Source: an uncultured Gammaproteobacteria bacterium (GTDB lineage: Bacteria > Pseudomonadota > Gammaproteobacteria > Arenicellales > Poriferihabitantaceae). Taken from it: 64,000 nucleotides of DNA. The DNA lies in the NCBI GenBank assembly GCA_947259885.1, contig CAMYNW010000022.1:1871-65870 (forward strand), read 5' to 3'. The notes beneath the pieces were generated by a model that worked only from the letters and a program-made list of their open reading frames with translations, did no database searches and was not told the DNA's origin. Positions 1 to 62,377 of the stretch are shown here, piece by piece (position 1 is the stretch's first letter; every line of letters starts with the position of its first letter). Made by a program: the position numbers and the translations under genes.

Positions 1-3000
1 GTCATCACTTTTTCAGGCGGAACGATCAGCGCGGGCGAACTCGTAACACTTAGTTTTAATATCACGCTGGCAGACCCTATCGCTCTGGACCCGAATGAAG
101 TCATCAGCAATACCTCTGATGTGACCGGCAATTCACTGCCACCGAGCGATCCGAATGCAGACGAACAGCGGACAACCACTGATGAGGATGAAGACGAGTT
201 GTACGGACTGCCGGCAATCATCAAGGAGGTCGCAGACAACTATGATGACGTGCCGCCTGGAGATGCGGATTTTGAAGCGACCAGTCACGCAGGTACAGAT
301 GACAGCCAATTCGATACCACGCTGCCGGATCTTACAATAGGAGAGGTGGTCACCTATGAAGTGACGGTCGTTATACCCAACACCTTTGACGATCCGAATC
401 TCACAACCATCGCAACTTCGATTACGGATACCTTGCCGGTCGGGTTGGGCTTGATTGACGCAAGAGTAGTGGCTATCGGCGGTAACCGCAGTGCTGGTGC
501 CACCGAGGGCGGTGAGTTGGTCAACGATACCAATGCAGCGGTTACCGTTGGACCGGCCAGCAGCGGTCTGGCAGTGGGAAATTCCCTGGCCGCTGGCAGC
601 GCTAACATAAGTGGAACAGTAGGCGGCTCTTCAGTGACTTTCGATTTTGGAGGCCTTGCGGTTAATGATCTCGATGGGGCGGTTGGCGACGAGCAGACCA
701 TTGTGGTGCAGATTGATGCTGTAGTTCTCGATGATGCCAGTAATGCGGCAGGTGACGTGAAAGTCAACTCAGCGCAACTCATCTGGGAGGAGACTGCCGG
801 GGACCCGATTGTTATCGAAGATGATGCGGAAATTGAGATCGTAGAGCCGGAACTGGAAATAACCAAATCTTTTATCGATCCCGCTACCGGAGTGGATGTT
901 TACACCGTAGGCGAAGGAGACCAGGTCGTTGCGGTTTTGAATGTCACCAATAACGGTAGTGCAAATGTCTATGACGTTCTGGTTACTGATGAAATCGATC
1001 TGGTGAACTGGATCATTATCAGCGAACAGGTGACGCCACCCGGTTTTATCTATTCGGTTGAAGATGGCGTCAATGCCGTACCTGCTGATACGGTCACTTA
1101 CACCATGAATTCTTCTCTCGACGCCGCTAATCCGGACAATTTTGTTGCGCCTGGCGAGACGGTGACTATCGAGTTCATTCTTCAATACACGGGTGCCGAT
1201 GATGGCGGAGCGCAGATCGACAACACTGCTGAGGCCACTGGAAATTCTCTTCCAGCAAACGAAGTCCTGGTTGTTCCGGGCCTGGATACTGTTCGTGATA
1301 CCGAAGACGAAGGCTCTGATTTCGTTTATGAGGATCCTGGCCTCGAGAAGGTGGTGATCGAGGGACTTAATCCCGATACCGGCTCCGAACAGCACGATCC
1401 TGCTCTGGTCGATCTGAATATAGGCGAACAGGTAACCTATGAGCTCACCATCACATTACCGGAATCCTTGCTCGATGCGAGTGGCGCAATGATCCCGGTC
1501 ACCGTGAACCTGATTGATGATCTACCGGGTGGTTTTACCGTGGTTGGGGCAGAAATTACCGGTATAGGCAGTGCCGTGACCGCCGCTGACCTAGCGCTAG
1601 GGAATACCCTGACCGTGCTGGATCCGGTAACGCTTGGGCTTGGTGTACCTGCGGCAACTGACGATCCTGATATCTCCTCGGCAGATGTCAATTTCCCCGC
1701 GCCAGCAGTTGGCGACGGTTTTGATGATCAGGTGTTATTCAGTTTTGGCGGGGTCACGGTTGATGACGTTGATAATCTCGCGCTGCAAACCATCACAGTG
1801 CGTGTGACTGCTGTAGTGATGGATGTTGAACCCGAAAACATCGACGGCGAAGTTAGAACTAACGATGCGACGCTCGAGTTTTTTGGTACCCCGACCGGTG
1901 ATCCGGCTAATCCTTTCGACGAGATCGTTCCGATTGAGATCACCGATTCTGCAGATGTGGAAATCGTCGAGCCCGAGCTGGAGATTGAGAAGACTTTCTT
2001 GAATGCCGCGGGCACTGCTGAAGTTGAAAGCGTGACCTCTGGAGATACGATTACAGTTCAATTGACAGTGACTAACACGGGTACCGGCCCGGCTTATGAT
2101 CTGGTGATTGAGGATCCTTTGGATCCAACCAAATTCAATATTTCTACAATATCGCCGGTCTCCACTCCAGCAGCGTTTATGTTCAGTCTGTCGGGGAATA
2201 GCGTGATCTACACGCTTGATTCCGGTGCGGGCACCCCAGGGAGCCCAGCGCATGTGGTGACACCAGGAGAGAGCGTTGTTCTGACTTTTACCGTACAGGT
2301 ACTTGAGGGCATTGGACCTGATACTGCCCTCAACACTGCCACTGTCGATGGAGACTCTGCACCTGGCGACAACCCTTTTGAGCGCGACGAGCCCACTAAG
2401 GAAGGTACCGATGAACTCGCTATCCTGGCGGTGCCGTTACCTCCATCAATCTCCCCCCCTTCTCAAGGTCTTACCGGTTTAGAAGATACCGGAGATTCAG
2501 AAACTCTCGCCGATCAGGTACTGAGGACATATCGATACGACATCTTCGATCGGCTCAGGGATGAGTATGATGAACTGTTTGAACAGATCCGGCGTGATCT
2601 CCAAACCGAACTACCTAAGCTCTCAGCGAACTATATGGCCACCGGGATCACCGAGCACGGATCAAACGTTACGCTGATCGTTTACGATGAAACCGGAGCT
2701 ATTGTTGGCTACTCTTCTACCCTTGCCGATACCGCGGGCAACTGGGCAGTGAGCTTTCCTCAGACCGTTCTGGATAAATCACCTCACCATGTCGAAGTGC
2801 AGGTATCAGCGGCCAGCTATAATGAAAGCACCGCCGGTGAATTTAATACCCGTATATATTTCACTCCCGCCACTGATGCCAGAGTGGCGCATTATAAGGG
2901 CCTCCAGGTCGGCGACGTGATTGCAGAGCGCGCGGATTCGTTGCTCGAGAGCATGCATCAGGGTAACCAGACGCCGTTCGGTTCTCCGGGCGCAAACTGG

Positions 3001-3048
3001 AATCATCCCTATGAGTTCCTTGGTACCGCAAGTATTGAAAACCTCTAA
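1..3048 (+). CDS. C-terminal part of a very large repeat-containing surface/secreted protein (DUF11 / 'conserved repeat domain' type); 5' end lies outside the window
   Basis: Frame 1 is open from base 1 (VITFSGGTISAGELVTLSFNITLADP...) into the listed ORF at 121, so the gene is truncated by the window edge. The signature 'E(I/V)VEPELEI(T/E)K(S/T)F ... VTN(N/T)G(S/T)..(V/A)YD(V/L)V(V/I)(T/E)D' occurs at nt ~835-1000 and ~1960-2110. The protein is acidic, rich in Thr/Val/Asp and has no Cys. The last ~190 aa are non-repeat and include an Ig-like 'GSNVTLIVYDETGAIVGYSSTLADTAGNWAVSFP' segment. Stop TAA is at 3046-3048. Confidence 0.85.
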   Translation, partial: VITFSGGTISAGELVTLSFNITLADPIALDPNEVISNTSDVTGNSLPPSDPNADEQRTTTDEDEDELYGLPAIIKEVADNYDDVPPGDADFEATSHAGTDDSQFDTTLPDLTIGEVVTYEVTVVIPNTFDDPNLTTIATSITDTLPVGLGLIDARVVAIGGNRSAGATEGGELVNDTNAAVTVGPASSGLAVGNSLAAGSANISGTVGGSSVTFDFGGLAVNDLDGAVGDEQTIVVQIDAVVLDDASNAAGDVKVNSAQLIWEETAGDPIVIEDDAEIEIVEPELEITKSFIDPATGVDVYTVGEGDQVVAVLNVTNNGSANVYDVLVTDEIDLVNWIIISEQVTPPGFIYSVEDGVNAVPADTVTYTMNSSLDAANPDNFVAPGETVTIEFILQYTGADDGGAQIDNTAEATGNSLPANEVLVVPGLDTVRDTEDEGSDFVYEDPGLEKVVIEGLNPDTGSEQHDPALVDLNIGEQVTYELTITLPESLLDASGAMIPVTVNLIDDLPGGFTVVGAEITGIGSAVTAADLALGNTLTVLDPVTLGLGVPAATDDPDISSADVNFPAPAVGDGFDDQVLFSFGGVTVDDVDNLALQTITVRVTAVVMDVEPENIDGEVRTNDATLEFFGTPTGDPANPFDEIVPIEITDSADVEIVEPELEIEKTFLNAAGTAEVESVTSGDTITVQLTVTNTGTGPAYDLVIEDPLDPTKFNISTISPVSTPAAFMFSLSGNSVIYTLDSGAGTPGSPAHVVTPGESVVLTFTVQVLEGIGPDTALNTATVDGDSAPGDNPFERDEPTKEGTDELAILAVPLPPSISPPSQGLTGLEDTGDSETLADQVLRTYRYDIFDRLRDEYDELFEQIRRDLQTELPKLSANYMATGITEHGSNVTLIVYDETGAIVGYSSTLADTAGNWAVSFPQTVLDKSPHHVEVQVSAASYNESTAGEFNTRIYFTPATDARVAHYKGLQVGDVIAERADSLLESMHQGNQTPFGSPGANWNHPYEFLGTASIENL
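124..2400 (+). repeat. Intragenic super-repeat of ~1.11 kb (~370 aa) within the adhesin-like gene, about two full copies plus a partial third
   Basis: Unit boundaries recur as 'TGNSLPPSDPNADEQRTTTDEDEDELYGLP' (nt ~124), 'TGNSLPANEVLVVPGLDTVRDTEDEGSDFVYEDPGLE' (nt ~1237) and 'DGDSAPGDNPFERDEPTKEGTDELAILAVP' (nt ~2347). 'VEPELEI.K.F' recurs ~1125 nt apart. The copies are diverged at the DNA level, so the repeat is visible in protein rather than nucleotide sequence. Confidence 0.6.
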
Positions 3049-3067
3049 AATACAAATAGCCTATCTC

Positions 3068-5029
3068 ATGCCCATAAACACCACAGCAAACCAAATCAAA
3101 GCCCTGACGCTCTTTCTCTGGGTGGCATTTTGTCTGGCTACTCCCGTTAATTCGAGTGCAGAGGACTGGAAATTTTCTGAGAGTTCCGCTGAGGAATCAG
3201 CAGTTCTCAAACAAAATTTGAAGCGTCAGTTTGCCGATGATGAGGTGACAGATAATATTGAAGAGAGATATCAGTCGGACGACGAACCGGTGAATTGGCG
3301 AAACAAAGACAAGGAGTTTGATCCTGCGATTATTGATTGGGAGCGAGACGAAGATTTACAGCGCCTGTCACCGATTGTTGAGGATGCAGAGAAGAATGTC
3401 GAACTCATCGGTACTGGCGGCAACCCTTACGCGAGTGACATCAGCGATGGGAAAATGCCTGATAAATTAAACATCTGGTGGGATCGTGAAGTACTCTCAC
3501 AGATGGGCAGGAACACCGTGCCGAATCGCGAAACACCGGAGAGCTTGATCCTCAGAGCGATGGAGCATTCGAGTCAGATCAAGGTCTTTTCTGATGTGCC
3601 CATCATACGAGAAACCGCAGAACTTGAGGCGGTTGGAGAATTTGATCCGATAGCCTATTCCGAGTATCGAATGACCGATCTCGATGAGCCGGTGGGGAGT
3701 ACACTCAAGACCGGTGGTCCAGAGCGTTTTTTCGAGGACGAATGGTTATTCAGGGCAGGTATCAGAAAAAAGTTCGTAACCGGAACCGAGATCGACCTAT
3801 CACAAAGATGGGGAGTTTTAGATAACAATTCAGAATTTCTTGTGCCAAAGGATCAGGGCAATGCAAAAATCGCAATCACCCTCACCCAGCCACTGATCAA
3901 TGGTGCGGGAATCCGCTATAACCGGAGTTTGATCGATGTTGCCCAACTTGATGGCAGCATCGCCCGTGATGAATTCAAGCGCCAAGTTGAATCTCATCTG
4001 CTTGAACTCGTGCGATCCTACTGGGGACTCTACCTGGAGCGCGCTACACTTACACAGCGCAGGGCATTGGTAAGGCGCACTCAGAAGATTGCAGACACCC
4101 TCGAGGCCCGATCAGGTTATGACGTGTCAGAAGTCCAGGCTCAGAGAGTCCGGTCTGAGGTGCTGGTGCGAAAGTCCGATGTAGTGCGAGCTGAATCTGC
4201 GGTTCGAAATGCGGAAGCCCGAATTGTGTCCCTGATCAATGATCCCGAATTCAGTATGCGAGACACGTTTGAGTTGTTACCAGAGACCACACCCATCACA
4301 GCAGCGAGCACGGTAACACATGACATGGCGCTCGCACTTGCGCTCGCAAACCGACCAGAGATCGATCAGGCATTCAAGCAGGCACGTGCCAGTGCGATTC
4401 GAGTTAAGATGACCAGAAACGAACTGCGCCCGGTTCTTAATTTCGTGCTCGGGTATGCCCGTGATGGATTGGCGGGTGAAGGTGATTATAACCAGGCCTT
4501 TGAGAATGAGTTTGACCTTGGTGATGGAAGCTGGATCGCAGGTTTGGTATTTGAAATGCCGCTCGGGAACCGTGTGGCCAAGTCCCGACTCGAAAGACGT
4601 CAAGCAGAAGCTAGACAGTTGGCCTATCAGCTCAAGACAACCGTGGATACTGTGCTGCTGGAGGTTCAGGTTTCGGTTCGAGAAATCCATACGTCATACC
4701 GTGAAATGCATGCTAAGTACACCGCAATGCAGGCGCTGGTAGCTGAAGTCGATAGTCTGGAACAACGTCAGGGAGTTGAACTTGTGGACGGCAACAGCGG
4801 CGGTAGATATCTTGAGAGACTACTGGACGCACAGGATCGGCTGACAGAATCTGAACACGAGTTCCTGAAGAGCATGACGACTTATAATGTAGCGTTAGTA
4901 AATCTGGATCGTGCTACCGGCATGTTTATGCAGACAAATGACATTCAGCCCCGATATTTTGATGATATAGATCCTTATATTGATGGACTTCCCACATACG
5001 AACTGGAAAAAGTCAGTAGTTCACAATAA
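3068..5029 (+). CDS. TolC-family outer-membrane efflux/secretion protein
   Basis: The listed ORF starts at 2921 inside the upstream gene. The in-frame ATG at 3068 gives a signal peptide, 'MPINTTANQIKALTLFLWVAFCLATPVNSSAED'. The body shows the two-fold OEP repeat pattern: 'LLELVRSYWGLYLERATL', 'ALALALANRPEIDQAFKQARAS' and 'LLEVQVSVREIHTSYREM'. Confidence 0.85.
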   Translation: MPINTTANQIKALTLFLWVAFCLATPVNSSAEDWKFSESSAEESAVLKQNLKRQFADDEVTDNIEERYQSDDEPVNWRNKDKEFDPAIIDWERDEDLQRLSPIVEDAEKNVELIGTGGNPYASDISDGKMPDKLNIWWDREVLSQMGRNTVPNRETPESLILRAMEHSSQIKVFSDVPIIRETAELEAVGEFDPIAYSEYRMTDLDEPVGSTLKTGGPERFFEDEWLFRAGIRKKFVTGTEIDLSQRWGVLDNNSEFLVPKDQGNAKIAITLTQPLINGAGIRYNRSLIDVAQLDGSIARDEFKRQVESHLLELVRSYWGLYLERATLTQRRALVRRTQKIADTLEARSGYDVSEVQAQRVRSEVLVRKSDVVRAESAVRNAEARIVSLINDPEFSMRDTFELLPETTPITAASTVTHDMALALALANRPEIDQAFKQARASAIRVKMTRNELRPVLNFVLGYARDGLAGEGDYNQAFENEFDLGDGSWIAGLVFEMPLGNRVAKSRLERRQAEARQLAYQLKTTVDTVLLEVQVSVREIHTSYREMHAKYTAMQALVAEVDSLEQRQGVELVDGNSGGRYLERLLDAQDRLTESEHEFLKSMTTYNVALVNLDRATGMFMQTNDIQPRYFDDIDPYIDGLPTYELEKVSSSQ

Positions 5030-5062
5030 CGACTTCCACAGCGGAGTCTGGCACTTTGTACG

Positions 5063-5857
5063 ATGACATTTCGGGCAAGTATATACTCCCTGATCGCTGT
5101 TTTGAGTCTGGCCTCTCAGCCAGTCTTGTCGTTCGAAGGTTTTCTCGAGCCGTTGCAGACCGTCGATATAACTGCTGCTGAAACAGGTGTTTTGAGCACA
5201 CTCAGTGTTTCAGAAGGTGCTGAAGTAAAAGCTGGCGATGTCCTCGCAGTTCTTGACTCGCGTCTGATTGAAGCTTCTCTGAAAGTAGCCAAGGCCAAGA
5301 AAAACTCAACTGCAACGATCCTGGGAGCCAGTGCGGAGTGGGAGGTTTCAAAAAACAAACTGGCCCAGTTTGAAAAACTGTATGCGGCAGGTAATGCGAG
5401 GAAAGATGAACTGGTGCGGGCAGATCTGGATGAAAAGATCGTGGCGGCGAAACTGGCGCGTGCCAGGGAACAGAAAGAAATCCTGGAGTTGGAGTACCAA
5501 CGAATTCAAATGCAGATCGAGCAACGAATTATCCGCAGCCCGATTAACGGTGTCGCGGTAACCGTGAATAGGGAAGCTGGAGAACTGGTGAGTGCTTCGC
5601 ATGGACCTTTCATCCGTATTGTCGATATATCTCAGCTGAAGTTCATCACTAATATACCCCAGCAGGACGCACGGAAAATTAACCGGGGCGATGAAGTCAG
5701 TATAGGGCTTGATGCGGAAGGGGAAAAGCTGACAGGTAAAGTTGAATATGTCTCTCAGATCATCGATCCAACCAGTAATACCGTTAAAGTCTCGGTGAAT
5801 CTTGAGAATCCTGGCGGCGTCAGAAGTGGAAACGCAGGGCGTCTTTTGCTGCAGTAA
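5063..5857 (+). CDS. HlyD-family periplasmic adaptor (membrane-fusion protein), short form with signal peptide
   Basis: N-terminal signal 'MTFRASIYSLIAVLSLASQPVLS'. Lipoyl-like hairpin 'GVLSTLSVSEGAEVKAGDVLAVLD', a coiled-coil stretch, then 'IRSPINGVAVTVNREAGELV' and a beta-barrel tail 'GKVEYVSQIIDPTSNTVKVSVNLEN'. Confidence 0.85.
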   Translation: MTFRASIYSLIAVLSLASQPVLSFEGFLEPLQTVDITAAETGVLSTLSVSEGAEVKAGDVLAVLDSRLIEASLKVAKAKKNSTATILGASAEWEVSKNKLAQFEKLYAAGNARKDELVRADLDEKIVAAKLARAREQKEILELEYQRIQMQIEQRIIRSPINGVAVTVNREAGELVSASHGPFIRIVDISQLKFITNIPQQDARKINRGDEVSIGLDAEGEKLTGKVEYVSQIIDPTSNTVKVSVNLENPGGVRSGNAGRLLLQ

Positions 5858-5935
5858 ACTATCTGTGAACTTGCAGGCGGCCGTAATGAAAATTTATTGT
5901 TTGATTTTCAGAATCTGTTGTAAAAATGCTTACCG

Positions 5936-7903
5936 ATGCAGGGAGTTTCCCGATCTCGCAAAGCCCATACCGCGTGTTATCGCATGCGAAAAATGAATAC
6001 ATCTTTAAAACCTTCCATTAAATCTCAGAAGGCCGATGCGGAGTCATCGGTTGCGGAGCAATTGGCGCGAACTGATGTACCAAAATTTGACAGTCAAACT
6101 ACCTATGCCCAGCTGTTAAGGTTGACCGAGACGCTGAGCACGCGCCAGGAATTTCTCCTTTCTTTACTACAGTATGCAGTCAGCGTGTCCCACGCCCATG
6201 GCGGGGTTTATTACTTGCTTGATGATTCCGGGGTGCTGAAGCTAGGTCCGAGACTTTTATCTCGGGAGCTTATGTATCAGGTTCCTGGGGCGATGGAGAA
6301 TATCAATGCTCTTGCAAAGGACTGTCTCAATAAAGGTTACAGTATCAGTGGCGCAATTGACCCTGCAGAATCGATTCAAGCTGTAATGTCTCCTGTCAGC
6401 TGCGGTGATCAAGGTGCTGAAGTTATTTGTCTAGTGGTCAATGTAGAGGCGTCACAGAAAAGCTACTGGAGTCTTTTTGTTCAGCTGCTTGCAGGTTACG
6501 TTAACTTGTGGGAGCAATCGCTATCGAATCGTCGGCTGCTCGAAGAGACCACATTTACCGCTGGTCTGGTCGAAATTATCAGTGAACTTAACCATACAGA
6601 AGATACGGAGAAGGCACACATTAATTTCACTTCGCAGCTAAAGCATCTCACGCAAGCTGACAGGGTGGCACTTGGCTTATCCCGACGCAGCCGGTCAGGG
6701 TTAAGTTTGGTGCAGCTTTCTGATGGGGATGATGTAAACAAACGTGGCGAATTTACTCGTTTGTTGGAGCTGTGCTTCGAAGAATCCATGGATTTTGGAG
6801 AACCCGTTGTTTGGCCAGAGGATAATGATAGAAACGATCGTGGTTTGTTTGGCGGCCACAAGCGTTTCAGTGAATTTGTCGAAGCCAAAAGCATGTTGTC
6901 GGTACCTCTGGTCGGGACAGACGATGAGCGAACCGGCGTGGTGACGCTTTGGTGGAGCGATAAAGTTCCGAATAATCAGATAAGACATTCTATGGGCGCT
7001 GCAGCAGAGCCGCTGGCAAATGCGATCGAGGCAAGAGAACGCTTCAAAGGATCTGCCTATCACAAGCTTTTGTTCAAGCGACACCGCAATCGGACAAAAG
7101 TTTTGATGTTTCTGCTGATGATTGCAGTAACCGGCACCATGTTTTTTCCGATCACTCACCGGATTACCGGCGATGTTTTGATTCAGCCAGTTGGTCAGCG
7201 AATAGTTTCAACTTCGTTCGATGCGATCCTCGATGAAGTTTTCGTGGATACGGGTGATCTGGTAAAGAAAGGAGATAAGCTCGCTGAATTTGATGGCCGA
7301 GAGTTGAAGTGGCAGCTGAACAGTCTCGAAGCCGAAGCTGCAAGTGCAAAGAAGACCAAAGATCTGAAGCTCGCGGAAAGGGATGCTCAGGGTGCGCAAG
7401 TCGCGCGACTCGACATGGAACGCATTGACCTGCAGGGAGAGTTGCTTCGTCACTACATTGCAAACCTTGAAGTCCGATCCCCGATAAGCGGCATTATTCT
7501 AAGTGGAGACTTAGAGCAGAGACGCGGCAGTCTGATCTCTAAAGGACAATCAATATTCGAGATCGCCCCGCTCGACAATGTCGAAGCAGAAATAAGACTA
7601 TCAGCGCTCGATTTCAAACATATTGGACCCGATATGCCCGCTGAAATTTCTCTTGAAGCTCTTCCAGGTGAAAACTGGCCGGTGACCCTGGAGCGGGTCC
7701 AGCCACGGGCCATGGTGCTCGATTCAAAATCGGTGTTTATTGGCCGTGAGAGTATTAACAACGCTGATAAAAGAATACGACCGGGGATGCGTGGTGCGGT
7801 CTCGATCGCAGGAGAGAAAAGGCGCATTGGTTGGGTTTTGTTTCATCGCGCGTATGACAAGGTTGCGTTATGGTTGCGCGCTAAGTTTGGCTTGAAGGCG
7901 TGA
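5936..7903 (+). CDS. HlyD-family adaptor with a long cytoplasmic N-terminal region (two GAF-like segments) and one TM helix
   Basis: The C-terminal half is HlyD-like: 'GDVLIQPVGQRIVSTSFDAILDEVFVDTGDLVKKGDKLAEFD', a coiled coil, 'VRSPISGIILSGDLEQRRGSLISKGQSIFEIAP' and 'RPGMRGAVSI'. A TM helix 'VLMFLLMIAVTGTMFFPI' precedes it. The N-terminal ~380 aa contains two alpha/beta segments ending in 'EVICLVVNVE' and 'TGVVTLWW', which resemble GAF folds; this is inference. The start is uncertain, with in-frame ATGs at 5936, 5984 and 5993 and no good SD for any of them. Confidence 0.8.
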   Translation: MQGVSRSRKAHTACYRMRKMNTSLKPSIKSQKADAESSVAEQLARTDVPKFDSQTTYAQLLRLTETLSTRQEFLLSLLQYAVSVSHAHGGVYYLLDDSGVLKLGPRLLSRELMYQVPGAMENINALAKDCLNKGYSISGAIDPAESIQAVMSPVSCGDQGAEVICLVVNVEASQKSYWSLFVQLLAGYVNLWEQSLSNRRLLEETTFTAGLVEIISELNHTEDTEKAHINFTSQLKHLTQADRVALGLSRRSRSGLSLVQLSDGDDVNKRGEFTRLLELCFEESMDFGEPVVWPEDNDRNDRGLFGGHKRFSEFVEAKSMLSVPLVGTDDERTGVVTLWWSDKVPNNQIRHSMGAAAEPLANAIEARERFKGSAYHKLLFKRHRNRTKVLMFLLMIAVTGTMFFPITHRITGDVLIQPVGQRIVSTSFDAILDEVFVDTGDLVKKGDKLAEFDGRELKWQLNSLEAEAASAKKTKDLKLAERDAQGAQVARLDMERIDLQGELLRHYIANLEVRSPISGIILSGDLEQRRGSLISKGQSIFEIAPLDNVEAEIRLSALDFKHIGPDMPAEISLEALPGENWPVTLERVQPRAMVLDSKSVFIGRESINNADKRIRPGMRGAVSIAGEKRRIGWVLFHRAYDKVALWLRAKFGLKA

Positions 7904-10047
7904 TAAACACAGATAAAAGCGTCAGAGAACTGAACCGTCTGAAGCTCAAGATCAGATCGGATGTTTCCATTTCAGCCAGGACAGATGGCGCTGAGCGCAC
8001 ATTTCTAATTGAAGATTCAATCGGCGGTAAATTTTATCGCGTGGGTGAATCGGAGTATCGATTTATAAGTCTGCTCGATGGCAGCGCGACCATAGGTGAA
8101 ATACTTATCCAACTGGCGCGAGATCTGGGAGAGGCCGCCTTGACCGAGCAAGACGCGGCGGTGATCGTGAACTGGCTATCTGAGTCGCGTTTATTGCAGC
8201 CAGAGTCTGGGATCGAAGCAGATCAGATAATCGACGCACGAAGCAGCAGGGACAGTAATCGCTTTCTGCGATGGTTGAACCCGTTATTCATAAAGATCCC
8301 ATTGTGTAATCCGGATCGCTTTCTAGAGTGGTGTAAACCTCTTTCCCGGATTCTTTACTCTCCTACTGCATTTATTATCTGGTGTGTAATCGTTGTCAGT
8401 GGTCTTTATCAGGTGGTTGTCAACGCCAGCCGGTTTTCTACAGAAGCTTCAGGCGTACTTGCGGTCTCAAACTGGGCATTGCTGCTGATAGTCTGGATAG
8501 TGCTCAAAGTGATCCATGAGCTCTCACACGGATTGGTATGCAAACATTTTGGCGGGAGTGTTAACGAAGCCGGAGTGATAATGATACTGCTGGTGCCAAT
8601 AGGGTATGTGAACGCCACAAGTTCCTGGGGATTCTCTTCTCGCTGGCGACGAATCTATACGGCCGTTGCGGGAATCTATGTGGAATTTTTTATCGCCGCT
8701 GTTGCAGCGTGGGTTTGGGTCGGATCAGAACCTGGTTTGCTGCGTGCAGTCTGCTACAACACGATTGTTATCGCTAGTATTAATACGCTGTTGTTCAACG
8801 CAAACCCCCTGATGAAGTTTGACGGCTACTATGTTTTTTCCGATCTGGTCAAAATCCCTAATCTGTATCTTGAGGGCGTATCCTATGTGAAGTATCTGGC
8901 GCGCAGATATTTGCTCGGTTTGCCAATACGTTTTACAGGTCGAAGTGCCCGAGAAGATATTGTTATCCGCGTCTACGGTGTTTTGTCATTGATATGGAGG
9001 ATACTCGTGATTGCCACACTGCTGATTGCAGCAAGTGCGTTGTTTCACGGGCTTGGCCTGGTCATGGCCTTTCTGGCCCTCTGTGTAATAGTTGTGTTGC
9101 CGGGGCTGAAATTCTTGCGCTATCTGGTTTCTGGAAATCAGTACGAAAAACCACGTGCCTTTCGATTCGTCACCATGATCTCGGTGGTGGCTTTAATTAT
9201 ATATTTTGGTCTGTTCAGTTTTAAGTGGAACCAGTCAATTGCCGCGCATGGACTTGTTGAGTTTTCCTCGATCAAAGAGTACCGCACGATCTATCCTGGA
9301 GAGATACGGGCGATATTGGTCGAAGATGGCGAGGAAGTATCTGCAGGCCAAAGACTAGTTGACCTGTCGAATCCGGAGTTGGTAGTTCAGGTCGCCACTA
9401 AGCGAAACGAGCTGGAGAAAATCAGGCTCGAGCGAAAGGAGCTTTTACGTCAGAATAAGCTCGCCGCCTATCAGGCCACCAAGGAGCGTGAAACTGCCGC
9501 AAGGCGCCAGCTACTGGAGTTTGAGCAAATGCTGGCTGGACTGGAATTGACGGCGGAGTCAGAAGGGGTCGTGATTTTAAACAACCCAGATTTGTTGGTT
9601 GGCAGATACGTGAGAAATTCAGACGTACTGCTCTCGATCGCGCATTCACTGGAAAAAGAACTGCGCATTGCGCTACCGCAACGTGATGTGAGTCGTCTGC
9701 AGTTGCAGGAGGATGACAGATTTAGGTTTCTGCTACTCGGCGGTGATGCTATAGAAGCAGAAATCCAAACGATATCGCCGAGCGCCACCGATCTATTAGT
9801 CAATCCTGTCCTCACCGCGGTCGGGGGTGGACCTCTTGCAGTGCTCTCGGAAGATTCGAATCGGTTCAGGATGACAGAACCACACTTCTGGATTATCGCT
9901 AGCATTATCAACAGCACCCGAGATGTCCTCGGAGCCGGGGAGCGGGGTTTGGCGGTGTTACAGGGTGTACCTACATCTATTGGCTATCTCTGGATACGAT
10001 CTGTGAAAGACTGGATCGAGGGAATTACCAATCAGATCAAAAGATAG
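7900..10047 (+). CDS. Triple fusion: PqqD-like (RRE-like) N-terminal domain, site-2-protease family M50 membrane metalloprotease, and HlyD-like C-terminal domain
   Basis: The GTG start at 7900 overlaps the upstream stop (GTGA). The N-terminus 'YRFISLLDGSATIGEILIQLARDLGEAALTEQDAAVIVNWLSESRLL' resembles PqqD-type peptide-binding domains. The zinc motif HELSH lies at nt 8515-8529. The second S2P motif N-x2-P-x4-DG ('NANPLMKFDG') lies at nt 8797-8826. Multiple TM helices follow. The C-terminal part has coiled-coil and barrel elements: 'GEEVSAGQRLVDLSNPELVVQVATKRNELEKIRLERKELLRQNKL' and 'ESEGVVILNNPDLLVGRYV'. Confidence 0.85.
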   Translation: MINTDKSVRELNRLKLKIRSDVSISARTDGAERTFLIEDSIGGKFYRVGESEYRFISLLDGSATIGEILIQLARDLGEAALTEQDAAVIVNWLSESRLLQPESGIEADQIIDARSSRDSNRFLRWLNPLFIKIPLCNPDRFLEWCKPLSRILYSPTAFIIWCVIVVSGLYQVVVNASRFSTEASGVLAVSNWALLLIVWIVLKVIHELSHGLVCKHFGGSVNEAGVIMILLVPIGYVNATSSWGFSSRWRRIYTAVAGIYVEFFIAAVAAWVWVGSEPGLLRAVCYNTIVIASINTLLFNANPLMKFDGYYVFSDLVKIPNLYLEGVSYVKYLARRYLLGLPIRFTGRSAREDIVIRVYGVLSLIWRILVIATLLIAASALFHGLGLVMAFLALCVIVVLPGLKFLRYLVSGNQYEKPRAFRFVTMISVVALIIYFGLFSFKWNQSIAAHGLVEFSSIKEYRTIYPGEIRAILVEDGEEVSAGQRLVDLSNPELVVQVATKRNELEKIRLERKELLRQNKLAAYQATKERETAARRQLLEFEQMLAGLELTAESEGVVILNNPDLLVGRYVRNSDVLLSIAHSLEKELRIALPQRDVSRLQLQEDDRFRFLLLGGDAIEAEIQTISPSATDLLVNPVLTAVGGGPLAVLSEDSNRFRMTEPHFWIIASIINSTRDVLGAGERGLAVLQGVPTSIGYLWIRSVKDWIEGITNQIKR

Positions 10048-10063
10048 GTAATTACAGGGTAGC

Positions 10064-11968
10064 GTGAGAGTATGGCACCAATTATGGAGAAGGGACCCGG
10101 CCGGTTTCACTGCGTCTGACTTTTCGCTTGTGGAGAGGGTCAATAGTCTTTATAGCGAGCTTAACAGCCAGTCTGATTCAGAGCTTTGTGAACGGTTTCA
10201 AGCGCTCCGAAAACGCGCTGCAGATCTTACGCAGAGCCAACTGACCTTATCTGACGATCAGTTCATTGCCAATGGGTTTTCCTGTATTAAGGAAGCGGGT
10301 CGGCGTGCACTGAATATGGAACTGTATGATGTTCAGATTCTGGCTGGTATAGCGATGGTGCGTGGAAACGTGGCTGAGATGGCGACGGGAGAAGGAAAGA
10401 CACTGGTCGCGGCGTTGCCGGCCTGCGTATTCGCATTGTGGGGGAAAGGGGTGCATATTATGACCACTAATGCCTATCTGGCCCAACGTGATTGTGAGCT
10501 TATGGGGCCTCTATATCGAATGCTGGGGCTGAATGTGGGTCTTATATTCAGCCAAATGCCTCGATCTGAAAAGCACGATGCGTACCTGGCAGATATAACG
10601 TATGGCGTCGGCAATGAATTTGGTTTTGATTATTTGCGCGATCAGTCGATGCTGCACCAGATGCCCAAGGCGGCTATTGGAAGCGCGTATCGTGATCGTT
10701 TGCGCGGCCAAACTGACGAGAAGATAAAACCTCTGCAGCGTGGACACGCTTTCGCAGTGATTGATGAGGCAGATAGCGTCATGATCGATGATGCCAATTC
10801 AACATTGATTCTGAGTGGGTCATCGGGATTGCCGCACCCACAACCAGAACCTTATAAGGTGGCGAGAGCGATATTCGAAGAACTGGTTGAGAACAAAGAC
10901 TACGTGGTCGCCGATACTGAGAAGAAAGTTTCGCTTTCCAGTGCTGGTATGGAAAAAATAGTCCAGCGCCTCGATCGCGATACACGCCTGTCGTTGACAA
11001 GGCCATGGGAGACATACGTCGTTAATGCAATCTATACGGATAGATTTTACAGTCTAGACATCGACTACATCATTAAAGATGAAGCGATTCAGATAATCGA
11101 TGAGTCGACCGGACGCCGTTTGGAGGACCGCAGCTGGAGTAACGGATTGCACCAGGCGGTCGAGGCGAAAGAAGGGGTGCCGATAACGGAAGAGAGTGCA
11201 TCTTATCTGAAAATATCTCGACAGCGTTTTTTTCAATCTTACCAAGTACCCTGCAGCATGACCGGAACTGCACTTGATTGCGAACAGGAGTTCAAGCGGT
11301 TTTATCATATGAGTGTCAAGAAAGTTCCGTTACACAAGAAGAGCCGCAGGAAACACCTGCCAATTAAGTTCTTCGCCAGCCGAGAGGAAAAGCGGAAAGG
11401 AGTTTCGGCGCTGGTTCGTAAAGTCCACTTAGCTGGAATCCCGATTTTGATCGGCACACGGAATGTAAAGGATAGCGAGAGTCTCTCGGAATTGATCCAC
11501 ACAGGTGGAATCAAATGTAATGTTTTGAATGCCAGGCATGATCAATTTGAAGCAGAAATAATTAAAAAGGCTGGTAAGAAATTCGCGGTTACAGTGGCGA
11601 CCAATATGGCCGGGCGCGGAACGGATATTCCAATAGATAAAGAAGTTGAGGATCTCGGAGGTTTATTTGTGATTGTTTTCGAGCCACACCTGTCACGGCG
11701 TCTGGATCGTCAGTTTATTGGGAGATGTGCGCGACAGGGTGAACCGGGAACAGCTGTAATGTTATCGTGTCAGGACGATGAGATTTTTCAGATCGCCAGA
11801 TTCACCGGGTGGTCTTCCCTGAAAAGAAACAAACAATGGGACCCTGAGAAGCTTGCGATACAAATCCGGGGGCTGCAATCAAAACTTGATGCCGAGGCTT
11901 ATTTGAACAGACAGCAATTGATGCGGCGAGATAAGTGGCAAGCGGAACTGCTGAACAAACTTACCTAG
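10064..11968 (+). CDS. SecA-like ATPase (accessory SecA paralog), C-terminally truncated relative to canonical SecA
   Basis: The start lies 16 nt after the upstream stop. SecA motor motifs are present: Walker A 'MATGEGKTLVAALPA', DEAD-like 'VIDEADSVMIDDANSTLILSG', 'ATNMAGRGTDI' and 'RRLDRQFIGRCARQGEPG'. The N-terminus 'ERVNSLYSELNSQSDSELCERF' parallels that of SecA. The protein is only 634 aa and ends shortly after the start of the scaffold helix ('LQSKLDAEAYLNRQQLMRRDKWQAELL'). Confidence 0.85.
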   Translation: MRVWHQLWRRDPAGFTASDFSLVERVNSLYSELNSQSDSELCERFQALRKRAADLTQSQLTLSDDQFIANGFSCIKEAGRRALNMELYDVQILAGIAMVRGNVAEMATGEGKTLVAALPACVFALWGKGVHIMTTNAYLAQRDCELMGPLYRMLGLNVGLIFSQMPRSEKHDAYLADITYGVGNEFGFDYLRDQSMLHQMPKAAIGSAYRDRLRGQTDEKIKPLQRGHAFAVIDEADSVMIDDANSTLILSGSSGLPHPQPEPYKVARAIFEELVENKDYVVADTEKKVSLSSAGMEKIVQRLDRDTRLSLTRPWETYVVNAIYTDRFYSLDIDYIIKDEAIQIIDESTGRRLEDRSWSNGLHQAVEAKEGVPITEESASYLKISRQRFFQSYQVPCSMTGTALDCEQEFKRFYHMSVKKVPLHKKSRRKHLPIKFFASREEKRKGVSALVRKVHLAGIPILIGTRNVKDSESLSELIHTGGIKCNVLNARHDQFEAEIIKKAGKKFAVTVATNMAGRGTDIPIDKEVEDLGGLFVIVFEPHLSRRLDRQFIGRCARQGEPGTAVMLSCQDDEIFQIARFTGWSSLKRNKQWDPEKLAIQIRGLQSKLDAEAYLNRQQLMRRDKWQAELLNKLT

Positions 11969-12124: not shown

Positions 12125-13099
12125 ATGGAGAACCATACGGAGATAGCCTATGCTTATAAATGCGCTGCATTCCCTTATTCAGAATATAATCAGGAAATGG
12201 TTTCGGGCAATCTTAAAGTAACTCGCCTCGCCGGTGCTCTGGGTGCGGAAGTAAAAGGCATGCCACTAGCAGATGTTGATGCTGCGCAAGTTGATATTGT
12301 TAAATCTCTGTTGCTGGAGCACCAGGTTTTGTTCTTTCCAGATCAATTTCTAGGCGTTGACGCACATGTCAATCTAGGGCGCTATTTCGGCATATTGGAA
12401 TCGCACCCAAATCTAAATAATCCTTACACTGAACATCCGGAAATTTTCGAGCTTGCAGCCAGTCACGGCGGTGTTGCAGATGAGTGGCACAGCGACATTT
12501 CATTTCAAGCCAACCCCTCCATCATGTCTATATTGAACATGATTAAATGCCCTGATGTTGGTGGTGATACGCTTTGGTCGAGCACCTACGCCGCATACGA
12601 AGGTTTGTCTGCTCCGATGAAAGATCTCCTGGACGGGCTGACCGCTCTCCATGACGCCGCCCCGCATTGTAAACCAGATATTACCGCTATCCATCCGGTA
12701 GTCCGTATTCATCCAGAAACGAACCGAAAGGCCATATTCGTTAATGAACACTTTACCCGGCGGATCGTCGAACTTAGCCATCAAGAAAGCAGACTACTCC
12801 TTGAGTATTTAATTGGCTGGATCGCCAGCCCTCGATTTACCGTCCGCTATCATTGGCAGCAGGGTGCCATAGCCATCTGGGACAACCGCTGTACTCAGCA
12901 CTATGTTTTGAGCGATTTTGATGAGGAAAGGATTATTCAAAGGGTCACAGTGATGGGGGATAACCCAAGACCAGCGGGGCCGCCTCGTTGGGAACCGTTT
13001 ACACGAACAGAAGTAACGGGTGCAACAAGTCGGTTTGACCAGCAGTTGAATAAACATTTAGGAAGGGAAGTTAACACCCTAGCAAGTAATAAAAAGTAA
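12125..13099 (+). CDS. TauD/TfdA-family Fe(II)/2-oxoglutarate-dependent dioxygenase
   Basis: 'ADEWHSDISFQANPSIMSILNMIKCPDVGGDTLWSS' carries the HxD facial-triad region. 'AIWDNRCTQHYVLSDF' is the typical C-terminal TauD motif. Confidence 0.85.
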   Translation: MENHTEIAYAYKCAAFPYSEYNQEMVSGNLKVTRLAGALGAEVKGMPLADVDAAQVDIVKSLLLEHQVLFFPDQFLGVDAHVNLGRYFGILESHPNLNNPYTEHPEIFELAASHGGVADEWHSDISFQANPSIMSILNMIKCPDVGGDTLWSSTYAAYEGLSAPMKDLLDGLTALHDAAPHCKPDITAIHPVVRIHPETNRKAIFVNEHFTRRIVELSHQESRLLLEYLIGWIASPRFTVRYHWQQGAIAIWDNRCTQHYVLSDFDEERIIQRVTVMGDNPRPAGPPRWEPFTRTEVTGATSRFDQQLNKHLGREVNTLASNKK

Positions 13100-52013: not shown

Positions 52014-52870
52014 TTATCTTCTAGAATACTTGTTATTGGCTTGCAGAATATTTCCCATAATCTCGGCTATTTCATATACCTGTGGTGCTTCCAGAATGCT
52101 TCGGTGGTGCCCGGACACTAGAAACGACTCTAGTCTCCCCCCACATGCTGCGTTCCATAAAGACAATTCGTATTGAGTCTTTTCTGCGTTTTGGAATTGT
52201 TCACTATAGAGAAAAGTGACTTCACCTGGGTATTCACTGGTCCTATACCGTCTCGTCAGAAAAGCCTGATAGAGAAACATCCGCTTGGTACGGTCGCCGG
52301 TGGATTGTTCAGAGGCTTTAGACTGAGATTGATGCGTCAATTTATAAACAAATGGCATAGTGGAGATGTATTTTTTTGTGAGCTCCAGGAATCTTCCTGT
52401 TTTTAGGTGTCTGATCACTTTAATGGGGAGTGGGGCGGTTCGCGAATAGCGAACTTTGGATCGTAAGTTTTCCGAAGTCGAGGGTTGCAGTTTACTTAAG
52501 TGAGGCCCTCCAGCATCAAGAACGAATAGTTCGTTGACCTTGTCCCCGGATTGCATGAGTTGCTGGGCGATCTCAAAAGCGATTAATCCACCGAAACACA
52601 TTCCACATAGAGTGTATGGTCCAGTAGCGTGAACAGACTTGATTTCTTTAATATAGCTCGCGGCCATTTCTTCGATTGACGAAAAACGCTTTCGTTCATC
52701 TCCGAGCTCGGGGCTTTGCAAACCATAGAATGGCTGATTGTCTCCAAGACTCAGGGATAAATCACGGTAAAAAAGAACGTTGCCTTCGGCATGTATGCCA
52801 AAAATAGGGGATTTATCACCCTGCGGTTGAATTGGGACCAGGACTTGTAAATGTGATTCGGCTCCCTTTA
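52014..52870 (-). other. Thioesterase domain with GxCxG (Cys replacing the nucleophilic Ser)
   Basis: The usual 'G(W/Y)S.GG' motif reads 'GMCFGG'. The Cys codon TGT lies at 52596-52598 on the - strand (aa 1727). A candidate catalytic His sits in 'VSGHHRSILE'. Confidence 0.8.
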
Positions 52871-55800
52871 GCAGGGCTTTTGCCAGGCTTTCAACGGTAT
52901 TGTTTTCTATCAGCATCGCAAGCGGCATTTTAAGGTCTAATAGTTTCTCTATTGCATTGGCTACCCGCACCGCTAACAGCGAATTCCCACCCAGGTCAAA
53001 AAAACTTTGTTCAACATTTTCGACTCGTTGTCTTAGGATATCTTGCCAGATCGCGACAATAGATCTTTCGAGCCCGGTATTGCCCGCATATCTCTGATTA
53101 CGATTTGGTGCTTCCTTATATTGAACGTGATCTACATCAAAAAATGATCTGCTCACCCTTGCAAGTTTCATCATTTCAGCAGGATTTTCTGAGTCAATCC
53201 ATGAAATCAATAAATCTTTTACAGTTGCCATCAATTGTTGACCTAAAGCATGGTTGAATACCGCGCTATTGAAATGCAGGCTCACGGTAAGCGCGTTACT
53301 CTCTGGAACCCCGACCAAGGTTAGAGGAAAGTTACTTGAAATGCCGGACTGGGAAAACTGAGTGTACTGACCACGTCGCTGAAGCGAAGTAATCAAAATA
53401 CTGTGCTTATGATCGATGTGTTTACCCGGCTGCCAGGGGAAATTCTCCATCATCAAGAGTGACTGGATTCCTACGGGTCCTTTTTTAGTTTTGACTATGG
53501 TGTTCAATGGGTGCACACACCAGTTCTGCAATACATTGGGTGAGACGTGTTCGCAGTCACGCAGTGAATTAGATTGTTTTTCGATTTGAGAGACGAACTC
53601 TGAAAACTCTGCCTCATCCGGTTGATTACAGATAACAGGGAGATGGTTAACAAACTGACCTGTCATCTTGTCAATGCCAGGGACTGGTGCGGTGCGACCG
53701 GAAACCGTGGTAAAAAAGGCGACAAGGTCGGCGTCACTGGCTGAACTCAGGCAAGCCGCCCAGGCCGCCTGCAACAATTGAGCAAAGGTGATCTGATTTT
53801 CCGCCAGGTGATCTTCCAGCCGCAAGAATGTATCTCCGGATATCTGGAATTCAGCTGAAACTTGCTTGCGACTTCTTTCCTGGCCTAGTGATAGCGCCGA
53901 CAGATCAGTCCTTGATTGGGCATAGGGCCCAAGAAAATTCGTCCAGTGCTTTTTTACTCCCAGTAAATCTGTCTGGGAAAGCCAGCGCTGGTACTGATAA
54001 AACTGAGGGGGATCCGACAGCCGGGTCACAGTTTCCATCAGCCTTGATTGATAAATTTCTATAACCTCCTGCAGAATAATCGAGGCCGACCAACCGTCAA
54101 CTAATCCATGATGAAAACTCCAGCATAAAATTGATTCATTCTGTTCAAGCTGGAATACAAAAATTCGCCAGGATGGATACTGATCAAGGTTGAGACCCTG
54201 TTGTCTATCGGCTGTCAGTCGCTTATCGATGGATTCCATTGGATTGTTCGGGTCTACATTCTCATATGAAATCTTCACCTCGCTCCTTGCATACACAACC
54301 TGTTCGGGTTCAGCTTTGTCACGCCAATGAATCAAGGTTCTCAGCGCGTCATGTCTGGTCACCACCTCGCTGCAGCACCGCTGCAGCAGATCGAGATCAA
54401 GATCGCCTTCAATTCGAGCCTGAATTTGCATGTGTCCAGGATCAGCAGCGCCACGACTCAAGTGAGAGAACAGGAATGCCGCCTGAGTGTCGCTTAGAGG
54501 AAAAGCGGCCGTCGCTTTTTCTCCATACTCTTCGGTAATTCGTTTCTTCTCTTCTGGTGTAACTAACCATGCTGCGTTCGAGGCCTTTGTCACTGTCGGT
54601 GCCATGCGGAGGCTCAGCTGCGCGATAGTTGGCGCTTCGAACAGATCGTTTGGACCAACCTTGAAACCTGCTTGCAGGATTTTAGAAACAATCTGGATAC
54701 TAAGTATTGAATCTCCGCCTAGACTAAAAAAGTTATCATCAATGCTGATTTGCTCCACGCCAAGAACTGTCTGCCAGATTTCCTGAAGGCAGCGCTGGAC
54801 CTCACTACTGGGTTGTCGAACACCATTTCGGGGTGAGGAGTTGCCATCATGCTGTTCAGCGATCTTTGCTAGAGCTTGCCTATCCAGCTTTTCGTTCGAC
54901 AAGGTCGGAAGTTCGGGCAGTTCGATAATCTGTGCTGGCACCATGTGTGACGGTAATTGAGTCGCAAGAGTGTCACGCAGTGTGTCTATTGTCCCTTCAT
55001 CAGACTCCATCACGACAAATGCGGTGAGTGTCGGCGCTCCTGCGCGAGAATACACCGAAACTATACTAGCAGCCCGGACATCGGGTAGAGACAAAATTCG
55101 CGCTTCGATTTCACCGGGATCAATACGGTGTCCGCGGATCTTGATCTGTTGATCGATTCGACCGAGGTAAATCAGGTTTCCATCTTCCAAGTACCGGACC
55201 AGGTCACCTGTATGGTAAACGGTGGTATTACCCTGATCGATGCAGAGGTGTCGGCGAAAGGCATTCTGAGTGGCCTCACTCTCTTGCCAGTAACCTGCTG
55301 AGACCCCGTCTCCTGCAATAACCAGTTCACCCGAAGCACCCAAAGGCGCAAGTTGCTCGTTCGGGTTCATGACAAACAGTCTAGTATTGGCTATGGGTCT
55401 GCCTATAGGCACCGGAACTGAACTGTCGTGGTGTGTCGCATCGTAGGCCGCGCACCATACGGTTGCCTCAGTGGGCCCGTATTCGTTGAAAATCTGGGCG
55501 TTCGGTAACAACGATCGATGCTGCTTCAGGTGCTCACCCGAGGGCATGGCTTCACCCGCATTGATGACAACCTGTATGCTACGGAGCGCCGATTTTTGCT
55601 CGCTCGAAGATGCATGGTCAAGTACGGACTGATACAGGCTGGGCAGGCATAACGTATGACTGATTTGCTCGGTAGAAATGGTGTGCAAAAGACTCTCGAT
55701 ATCCTGTTCCTGACGCGGTAGCGAAATCACCAGCTTTCCGCCATTAATCAAGGTCCAGAATATTCCAGCCACAGAGCTGTCAAAGGACAGTGATGAAAGC

Positions 55801-57776: not shown

Positions 57777-57805
57777 GCTTCAGTCAATAGGTGCAGACCA
57801 GACCG

Positions 57806-62122: not shown

Positions 62123-62137
62123 ATCGATGAGCTCGGC

Positions 62138-62377
62138 TTAGATCGTTGCGATCTCAGAATCGAGGTAGCTGACAATAGTATTGACGTTACCAAAGTTTTC
62201 GAGGGTCACGTCCTTTGGAGGAATGGTGGTTTCAAGGTTCTTCTCAATAAAACCCACCAAACGCATCACGCCAATAGAATCTATCAATCCGCTGATTAAT
62301 AGATCTTCCTCGGCAGTTATCGATTGTTGGTCGTTTAAAAGCTCAGACTGAATGAACGTTACCAGTTTCTGTTTCAT
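62138..62377 (-). CDS. Free-standing acyl/peptidyl carrier protein
   Basis: The 79-aa protein carries the phosphopantetheine-attachment motif 'LISGLIDSIGVMRLVGFIE'. Confidence 0.85.
   Translation of the reverse strand: MKQKLVTFIQSELLNDQQSITAEEDLLISGLIDSIGVMRLVGFIEKNLETTIPPKDVTLENFGNVNTIVSYLDSEIATI

Follow-up and report, generated by a model that had tools for sequence, protein, structure and literature searches.

An ABC-free TolC/HlyD operon with a short SecA paralog as a candidate export route for LEPR-XLL giant adhesins

What does a set of TolC- and HlyD-type export proteins carry, and what drives it, when no ABC pump is encoded with it? This question is raised by a locus at the start of a 64,000-nucleotide stretch of DNA from an uncultured gammaproteobacterium (contig CAMYNW010000022.1 of assembly GCA_947259885.1, positions 1,871 to 65,870 of the forward strand; the whole stretch is called the window here). 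Six genes with short or overlapping junctions form one operon in it: a giant adhesin-like gene is followed by genes for a TolC-type outer-membrane duct (OEP), a small HlyD-type adaptor (small HlyD), a GAF-type region fused to an HlyD adaptor (GAF-HlyD), an M50 protease fused to an HlyD adaptor (M50-HlyD) and a short paralog of SecA. The five genes downstream of the adhesin are a co-transcribed set. From sequence and predicted structure, we consider it probable that the operon encodes a dedicated type-I-like machine that recognizes giant adhesins with an N-terminal LEPR-XLL leader, probably clips them and exports them in one step. This reading is favored by a gene order kept in a complete ortholog, by catalytic and motor motifs that are intact and conserved, by a link to the cargo that holds in both directions of search and by the lack of a linked ATP-binding cassette (ABC) transporter. 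The six genes are the following.

1..3048, forward strand: 3' part (1015 codons) of the adhesin-like reading frame, open from base 1; stop TAA 3046-3048
3068..5029, forward strand: OEP gene; start ATG 3068, alternative ATG 3011; stop TAA 5027-5029
5063..5857, forward strand: small HlyD gene; start ATG 5063, stop TAA 5855-5857
5936..7903, forward strand: GAF-HlyD gene; start ATG 5936, alternative ATG 5993; stop TGA 7901-7903
7900..10047, forward strand: M50-HlyD gene; start GTG 7900, stop TAG 10045-10047
10064..11968, forward strand: short SecA gene; start GTG 10064, 16 nt after the stop at 10047

A check of the open reading frames (ORFs) returned the genes, coordinates and junctions listed by a first-pass annotation of the window, including the 16-nt gap and the GTGA overlap of GAF-HlyD and M50-HlyD at 7900-7903, which was verified base by base. 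The alternative OEP start at 3011, which is the start picked by the gene caller in locus L083, gives a 38-nt overlap with the adhesin gene. The same overlap recurs in the ortholog L089 (14087 vs 14124), which suggests translational coupling of cargo and duct. The absence of an ABC partner, also claimed in the annotation, extends to the whole 64-kb window, in which tblastn (E <= 1e-3) found no ABC nucleotide-binding domain (NBD). For pumps of the RND type, ACR_tran occurs in no annotated neighborhood list, and RND pumps were not searched for by sequence. L089 is a complete ortholog with the same gene order: a 4178-aa LEPR-type adhesin, OEP, HlyD, GAF-HlyD, M50-HlyD and short SecA. Only small ORFs and no pump lie upstream of its adhesin, so a hidden upstream ABC pump was rejected on the evidence of this locus, and the pump-free reading survived the check for an ABC or RND pump just upstream.

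The nature of the cargo can be read from both ends of the giant proteins. By profile search, the window adhesin contains DUF11/CLIPPER and isopeptide-type repeats, and HemolysinCabind (repeats in toxin, RTX) has no match in its C-terminal 1015 aa. The gene reaches at least 3463 aa in L083, where the contig end cuts it. It ends in a separate domain.

2590..3045, forward strand: cargo C-terminal domain (~150 aa), an Ig-like beta-sandwich core with a tail ending ...NWNHPYEFLGTASIENL

An exhaustive search found this domain in 226 representative clusters, always at the extreme C-terminus of proteins that are mostly 2000-6800 aa long. Conversely, the N-termini of cargo proteins show a basic stretch and then the motif L-E-[DEP]-R-[IVL]-[LM]-[FLYW]-[DS]-A, 10-70 residues from the start (for instance LLIEQLEERALFDAVP and LQFEALEPRVLFDAAP). 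The NCBIfam model NF012209 (LEPR-XLL domain, a motif of ~24 aa) recognizes this leader in three proteins (L028, L041 and L059), scoring 24-27 bits where 17 is the cutoff, and the N-termini of the cargos and orthologs lack a hydrophobic Sec-type h-region. Among the 70 carriers of the C-terminal domain with a length of 1500 aa or more, 45 show the leader in the first 100 residues, against a background of 6 per 228,345 residues; the remaining carriers start within repeats and appear N-terminally truncated. The two marks travel together. The closest full-length relatives of the window adhesin are P0248, the 4178-aa ortholog in L089, and the similar P0249-P0251, with leader forms ‘LEERILWDA’ and ‘LDERILMDA’. 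P0248 reads LRLQSLEERILWDATL and carries the leader ...KKRSLRLQSLEERILWDATLAPEP plus a DUF4347 domain.

DUF4347 comes after the leader in many cargos. It has invariant ‘sHG’ and ‘YGC’ motifs (L089 ~1588-2900; L001 12259-13300; A4 alignment), and this His/Cys pattern resembles that of caspase/CHAT-type cysteine proteases, which hints at self-processing. As for the C-terminal domain, its AlphaFold2 (AF2) model has a core with a predicted local distance difference test score (pLDDT) of 80-90 and a mean of 63.7. Its fold matches (FlgD-like and carbohydrate-binding-module-like beta-sandwiches) were set aside as generic and without functional information, the model being moderately confident.

The link between leader and export genes was examined in two directions. 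For the forward direction, 80 loci were fetched from GTDB genomes with an M50-HlyD alignment and joined by L001 and L002 to give 82 loci, which were scored by tblastn; 42 of them had full flanks, and the short SecA was scored within 10 kb. Six-frame ORFs of the M50-HlyD loci, 1.07 M residues in all, contain 30 instances of the strict leader motif, each of them at an ORF N-terminus; ~1.3 instances would be expected by chance (our own estimate from residue frequencies). A LEPR-type ORF is present in 30/84 M50-HlyD loci, and ORFs of at least 1000 aa lie beside the cluster in 37/86 sequences (85 loci and the window), some of them being spurious overlapping frames. Among the full-flank loci, LEPR ORFs accompany 14 of the 17 that have a short SecA vs 8 of the 25 that do not (p = 0.002). 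For the reverse direction, 80 loci were fetched with a DUF4347 alignment alone. A regular expression finds the leader in 52/80, and M50-HlyD lies within 10 kb in 26 of those 52. Only 3/28 loci without a match have M50-HlyD, and variant leaders can be recognized there by eye (LEEHILYSAD, LEPRILLSTV and LEPRQLFSAG). The leader is found in all 29 M50-positive DUF4347 loci (26 by expression and 3 as variants; Fisher p = 5e-4). A short SecA is near 21/80 of the DUF4347 loci, and ABC domains occur in 6/80. Cyanobacterial DUF4347 proteins (L117, L128, L144, L161 and others) have neither a LEPR-type leader nor the M50-HlyD/SecA system, and DUF4347 alone is thus not the export determinant. The giant genes beside these loci are, by their shared marks, one cargo family. 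The first-pass annotation had proposed the upstream repeat protein as a possible substrate, and this two-way link between LEPR-XLL sequences and the export genes backs that proposal strongly.

The component predicted to meet such a leader is M50-HlyD, a widespread fusion of ~715 aa with the following parts, all on the forward strand.

residues ~13-97, nt ~7936-8190, forward strand: leader-binding (RRE, PqqD-like) region, predicted fold
residues ~130-440, forward strand: polytopic M50 core
residues 206-210, nt 8515-8529, forward strand: HELSH, zinc site
nt 8797-8832, forward strand: NANPLMKFDGYY
residues ~445-715, forward strand: HlyD adaptor region

The zinc site falls where the first-pass annotation had numbered it, with the glutamate at E207. 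The Pfam model Peptidase_M50 scores 29.7 bits against a cutoff of 27.2, and residues 30-400 match NF041824 (‘daptide intramembrane metalloprotease’) with 182 bits, short of its equivalog cutoff of 300. The second zinc-site motif, NxxPxxxxDG, reads NANPLMKFDG at residues 300-309, and 64 homologs share H206, E207, H210, N300, P303, D308 and G309 without exception. An AF2 model of residues 1-440 has a mean pLDDT of 82.7, and Foldseek matches its M50 core to the Methanocaldococcus jannaschii site-2 protease 3b4r with probability 1.0. Residues 15-95 are modeled as strands followed by helices (pLDDT ~80-90), in agreement with the three-stranded beta-sheet and winged helical bundle of RREs, and the Foldseek matches of the first ~95 residues are the leader-bound lasso-peptide RREs 5v1u and 5v1v (TbiB1) and 6jx3_B, with target-normalized TM scores of 0.72-0.76 and root-mean-square deviations of 2.6-3.5 A. 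The N-terminus is thus predicted with high confidence to adopt an RRE/PqqD fold. The earlier PqqD-like call stands as a predicted fold, whereas Pfam PqqD has no sequence match in the protein.

The combined RRE and M50 module is, on sequence grounds, homologous to daptide and YydH-type leader peptidases of ribosomally synthesized and post-translationally modified peptides (RiPPs; NF041824 and YydH/LiaK NF058609), with which it shares the HExxH and NxxPxxxxDG motifs. It differs from them in its score below the equivalog cutoff, in its fusion to HlyD and in the lack of RiPP tailoring genes nearby.

The other unusual component is the short SecA, a protein of 634 aa in which NBD1, the preprotein cross-linking domain (PPXD) and NBD2 are followed by no more than the first scaffold helix. 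Its motifs are placed as follows.

nt 10379-10402, residues 106-113, forward strand: Walker A, MATGEGKT
nt 10763-10777, residues 234-238, forward strand: DEAD box
nt 11600-11629, forward strand: TNMAGRGTDI

Profile scores are 298 bits for SecA_DEAD, 86 bits for SecA_PP_bind and 137 bits for P-loop_SecA, and SecA_SW finds no match. NBD2 retains its motifs, and the PPXD is likewise kept. The protein aligns with residues 16-644 of the 822 residues of Thermotoga maritima SecA (3jux); since the alignment stops at ~644, it has no wing domain, two-helix finger or C-terminal tail. It falls into a family of its own, whose members are ~580-700 aa long, lack PF07516 and score higher than any canonical SecA or SecA2 sequence. 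The SecA2 models fall short of their cutoffs on the window protein, and no SecY2 or Asp accessory domains were found by profile search among the six operon products. A locus search with this single sequence gave no close relative in GTDB genomes; short SecA and M50-HlyD share a contig in at least 11 cases. From these features we infer a motor role for the short SecA. A second SecA-type ATPase devoted to particular, often huge, surface proteins is a feature shared with the accessory SecA2 of Gram-positive bacteria and mycobacteria and with the wingless SecA of Omnitrophota; the scaffold/wing domain is also missing in the Omnitrophota and Actinobacteriota cases. A 2023 preprint describes wingless SecA domains inside giant proteins of Omnitrophota and actinobacteria and proposes that the SecA domain helps to export the giant protein carrying it (bioRxiv 10.1101/2023.11.21.568195). 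Unlike these, the protein described here is free-standing, has no SecY2/Asp partners and belongs to a TolC/HlyD operon in a diderm.

The remaining parts would supply the path across the envelope. The OEP protein matches Pfam OEP over two repeats (79 bits) and TIGR01844; it has a signal peptide and an acidic, weakly conserved N-terminal extension of ~130 aa, with conservation starting at about residue 120-137. HlyD_D23/HlyD_3 is matched in all three adaptors. The small HlyD (264 aa) scores 67 bits with HlyD_D23 and 113 bits with TIGR01730, above the cutoff; its HlyD type agrees with the first-pass annotation, and its description there as soluble is to be qualified by an N-terminal signal or anchor segment. 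GAF-HlyD has a cytoplasmic GAF-type region (~60-365), one transmembrane helix (389-407) and a periplasmic HlyD adaptor. GAF is sub-threshold in the window protein (18-25 bits), although 6/7 orthologs pass the Pfam cutoff, and the earlier GAF-like call accordingly stands through the orthologs. The M50 fusion holds several transmembrane helices, and this topology, together with the single helix of GAF-HlyD, implies that the GAF and RRE domains are cytoplasmic and the adaptor domains periplasmic. Profile searches bear out the annotation's domain calls as a set, with PqqD resting on predicted fold and GAF on orthologs.

The components also keep company in other genomes. An HlyD-type gene lies immediately upstream of M50-HlyD in 75/82 loci, and the 82 loci include 49 with a small HlyD, 36 with OEP, 29 with a short SecA and 4 with any ABC NBD. 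The 42 full-flank loci include 22 with OEP and 3 with ABC domains. OEP is present in 16 of the 17 full-flank loci that have a short SecA (SecA-OEP association, Fisher p = 6e-6), which upholds, over the 42 loci, the expected co-occurrence of short SecA and TolC/HlyD genes with M50-HlyD. The ABC NBDs of related loci (4/82 and 6/80) are never within the cluster. The tightest pairs are M50-HlyD with GAF-HlyD and short SecA with small HlyD. The same component set is found in L001, in L089 and in about 30 other loci, and the phyla with the system include Planctomycetota, Verrucomicrobiota, Kiritimatiellota, Proteobacteria, Desulfobulbaceae and others. The six-gene arrangement of the window is one layout among several. 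For instance, the order in Lignipirellula cremea (L001) is OEP, short SecA, two SUKH genes, HlyD, GAF-HlyD, M50-HlyD and a 2564-aa cadherin-type protein. In Amphritea sp. HPY and Marinobacter suaedae (L111 and L120), the order is GAF-HlyD, M50-HlyD, small HlyD and a LEPR giant.

If the operon is an export machine for its giant neighbor, its parts could work as follows. The cytoplasmic RRE of M50-HlyD would bind the LEPR-type leader as an added beta-strand, by analogy with RREs that bind RiPP leaders, and the intact intramembrane M50 site would clip the leader in a putative cleavage step. The three adaptor paralogs could form a mixed ring docked on the TolC-type trimer; heteromeric adaptor pairs are known from TriABC. 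The short SecA, with its ATPase motor and preprotein clamp kept and its SecY-engaging parts gone, would thread the cargo at the expense of ATP, and the transmembrane segments of the M50 protein and GAF-HlyD would provide the membrane platform for threading. The GAF domain may gate the process on a small-ligand signal. The cargo could be threaded N-terminus first or C-terminus first, and its C-terminal domain may serve either as a signal or as a surface anchor. The broader claim is possible and is put forward more tentatively: that the locus represents a distinct, widespread secretion system of diderm bacteria, with an RRE-M50-adaptor gate, a ring of three adaptor paralogs on TolC, a wingless SecA as power source and LEPR-XLL proteins as substrates.

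Several observations weigh against the proposed machine. Only 17/42 full-flank M50-HlyD loci have a short SecA within 10 kb; missing nearby in more than half of them, it may be accessory or encoded elsewhere. L111 and L120 also have none in the 10 kb that precede the cargo gene. The words ‘self-contained’, used in the first-pass annotation, and ‘SecA-driven’ therefore remain conjectural. M50-HlyD with its RRE region stands alone in L002, L007 and L008 (Thioflexithrix, Candidatus Venteria and Beggiatoa), where no adaptors, SecA, OEP or LEPR ORF were found near it; the role of this stand-alone form may differ. The N-terminus of the window adhesin lies beyond the window and the contig, so that its leader is presumed from orthologs whose C-terminal domains are 45-64% identical to its own, and literature searches found no later paper that characterizes the locus or follows it up experimentally. 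Taken as a whole, the interpretation offered in the annotation is partly supported, and the observation behind it is confirmed.

The main rival is a retention and release switch like that of the Lap system. In it, the giant protein would be exported by other means (an unlinked type I secretion system with its own ABC transporter, or Sec), the RRE-M50 protein and the GAF domain would hold the tag and later clip it, and TolC with its adaptors would be the anchoring site. The operon does resemble type I systems (LapA/LapBCE with LapG/LapD; RTX adhesins) in having a TolC-type duct and periplasmic adaptors alongside a giant repetitive adhesin, and in having a dedicated protease and a cytoplasmic sensor of small ligands. 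LapA-type adhesins carry both their retention module and their LapG cleavage site at the N-terminus. The switch would account for a GAF sensor domain fused to an adaptor, for a protease that is intact, for a tag that is N-terminal as is the retention module of LapA-type proteins and for the many loci without a short SecA. In the type I and Lap systems, however, there is an ABC transporter of the HlyB type, one adaptor rather than three, a periplasmic cysteine protease rather than an intramembrane M50 enzyme fused to an adaptor and GGDEF/EAL domains rather than GAF; RTX repeats are lacking in the C-terminal 1015 aa of the window adhesin, and the conserved tag of its family is N-terminal. Also against a switch of this kind, the loci encode a TolC and three adaptors of their own but almost never a pump, neither a Sec signal peptide nor RTX repeats occur in those parts of the cargo that could be read, and a dedicated polypeptide-handling ATPase is often co-encoded. 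We regard it as unlikely.

The small-peptide and efflux readings fit poorly. The first of these holds that the operon exports a small leader-bearing RiPP or bacteriocin-like peptide through HlyD and TolC, in the manner of peptidase-containing ABC transporters (PCATs), and that the giant gene is a mere neighbor. Leader recognition, clipping and export by an adaptor and TolC are indeed shared with PCAT systems such as colicin V CvaAB-TolC. The RRE and M50 parts are closest to RiPP leader peptidases (NF041824, 182 bits; YydH/LiaK), the structural matches of the RRE are all RiPP enzymes, and a few LEPR ORFs are short (221-469 aa; L040, L045 and L076). However, no small ORF with the leader motif lies in or beside the window operon, the single match to a broad motif in the whole window being a chance-compatible 44-aa ORF at 25.6 kb, and in L089 the giant gene is the sole motif match. 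No RiPP-modifying enzymes adjoin the operon, and the leader is carried by the giant proteins themselves, with a statistical link both ways. The PCAT parallel differs further in that an M50 protease with an RRE takes the place of the C39 peptidase, a SecA-type ATPase that of the ABC transporter, and the cargo is thousands of residues long. A small-peptide substrate, which the first-pass annotation had kept as an option, is very unlikely on these grounds. Efflux of small molecules or metals, with the pump encoded elsewhere and the SecA paralog, M50 fusion and adhesin as unrelated neighbors, is least credible of all. The best adaptor scores do belong to membrane fusion protein models of the RND type (TIGR01730), but the fusions and neighborhood are conserved between phyla, the genes are translationally coupled and no pump is linked.

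The proposed export machine has a precedent in silico. ‘Secondary SecA_DEAD’ proteins without the wing/scaffold domain were described together with a locus that encodes Peptidase_M50-HlyD, GAF-HlyD, HlyD and sometimes OEP, with the ABC transporter absent; the proposal was that SecA acts as ATPase and that the M50 protein forms the membrane component, and the biological role was called ‘completely unknown’ (Kamneva, Poudel and Ward, PLoS One 2015; PMC4452313). The combination that the first-pass annotation did not recognize had thus already been reported, with the same idea of a SecA ATPase and an M50 membrane part, and the annotation rediscovered a described but uncharacterized system. The window agrees with that locus in its wingless SecA paralog, its M50-HlyD, GAF-HlyD and small HlyD/biotin_lipoyl proteins, its OEP and its lack of ABC genes. 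It has both the type of SecA paralog and the co-encoded genes by which the locus was defined, and the phyla are the same. It is a further instance, of gammaproteobacterial type, with all six genes in one operon. What is added here is the cargo family (LEPR-XLL leader, DUF4347 and C-terminal domain) and the leader-binding fold; the 2015 text names no substrate, PqqD/RRE domain, adhesin, DUF4347 or N-terminal tag. Literature searches found no paper that ties LEPR-XLL or DUF4347 to the locus, and both the cargo link and the RRE domain appear to be unreported in the searchable literature.

Circumstantial support for an export machine of this kind comes from Chlorobium chlorochromatii. A 2026 preprint reports symbiosis proteins of 36,806 aa and 20,647 aa with N-terminal LEPRxLL domains; the genes Cag_663 and Cag_665 flank a TolC gene, the proteins ‘lack known signals’ and they are co-expressed with a horizontally acquired secA. 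One Chlorobi genome with a secondary SecA is listed in the 2015 study (PMC4452313). It is unnamed in the main text, and the connection is therefore a lead rather than a result.

Many giant adhesin-like proteins, which are common in marine and soil bacteria, lack a recognized export signal. If the proposal is right, a large class of such ‘orphan’ giants would gain a secretion route, LEPR-XLL would be a new class of N-terminal export signal and the exit of many of the largest proteins of bacteria, perhaps that of the Chlorochromatium symbiosis giants too, would be explained. A locus known in silico for ten years would acquire a substrate and hence an assay, and SecA-type motors would be seen to act outside the SecYEG pathway in diderm bacteria. 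The LEPR-XLL link and the RRE make the locus directly testable as a candidate new secretion route for giants. Culturable carriers are Piscinibacter sakaiensis 201-F6, Lignipirellula cremea, Methylobacterium extorquens AM1, Marinobacter suaedae and Amphritea.

Five loci, L001 among them, were looked up individually with the short SecA as starting point, and they show further layouts. The Kiritimatiellota locus has a gene for an 8020-aa protein followed by DUF3467, HlyD, a gene for a 723-aa protein, short SecA and small HlyD. The DUF3467 gene (95 aa; L085 5638-5925) separates the 8020-aa cargo from the adaptor genes, and its product may be a small accessory or chaperone component. Chthoniobacter has OEP, short SecA and small HlyD in this order, a 4806-aa protein is encoded near them, as is a 723-aa HlyD protein, and two further contigs of the Planctomycetes-Verrucomicrobia-Chlamydiae (PVC) group have short SecA, small HlyD and YkuD only. 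In PVC genomes, the small HlyD comes directly after the short SecA. A gene for YkuD (L,D-transpeptidase) lies downstream of this pair in L086 (15238-16149), L087 (12845-13825) and L088 (13011-14003); it adjoins the pair in L087 and L088, and one kinase-domain gene intervenes in L086. The two SUKH/SMI1-KNR4 immunity-type genes of L001 (5516-6684) stand between the short SecA and the small HlyD, which suggests that some cargos of the system may carry toxin modules. In L002, an SBP_bac_5 gene precedes M50-HlyD.

A word-indexed search with the 1015-aa adhesin fragment returned six fragmentary matches and no full-length N-terminus. Rfam has no match in the window, and a scan of the window for promoters and terminators gave the same result as shuffled sequence. 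The gene after the short SecA encodes TauD (12125-13099), and the remainder of the window holds metabolic genes and a non-ribosomal peptide synthetase cluster. The genes of this cluster (52014-63905, reverse strand) are unrelated to the export operon and comprise a 1919-aa C-A-T-...-TE protein, a 1437-aa C-A-T protein and a 490-aa adenylation-type ORF.

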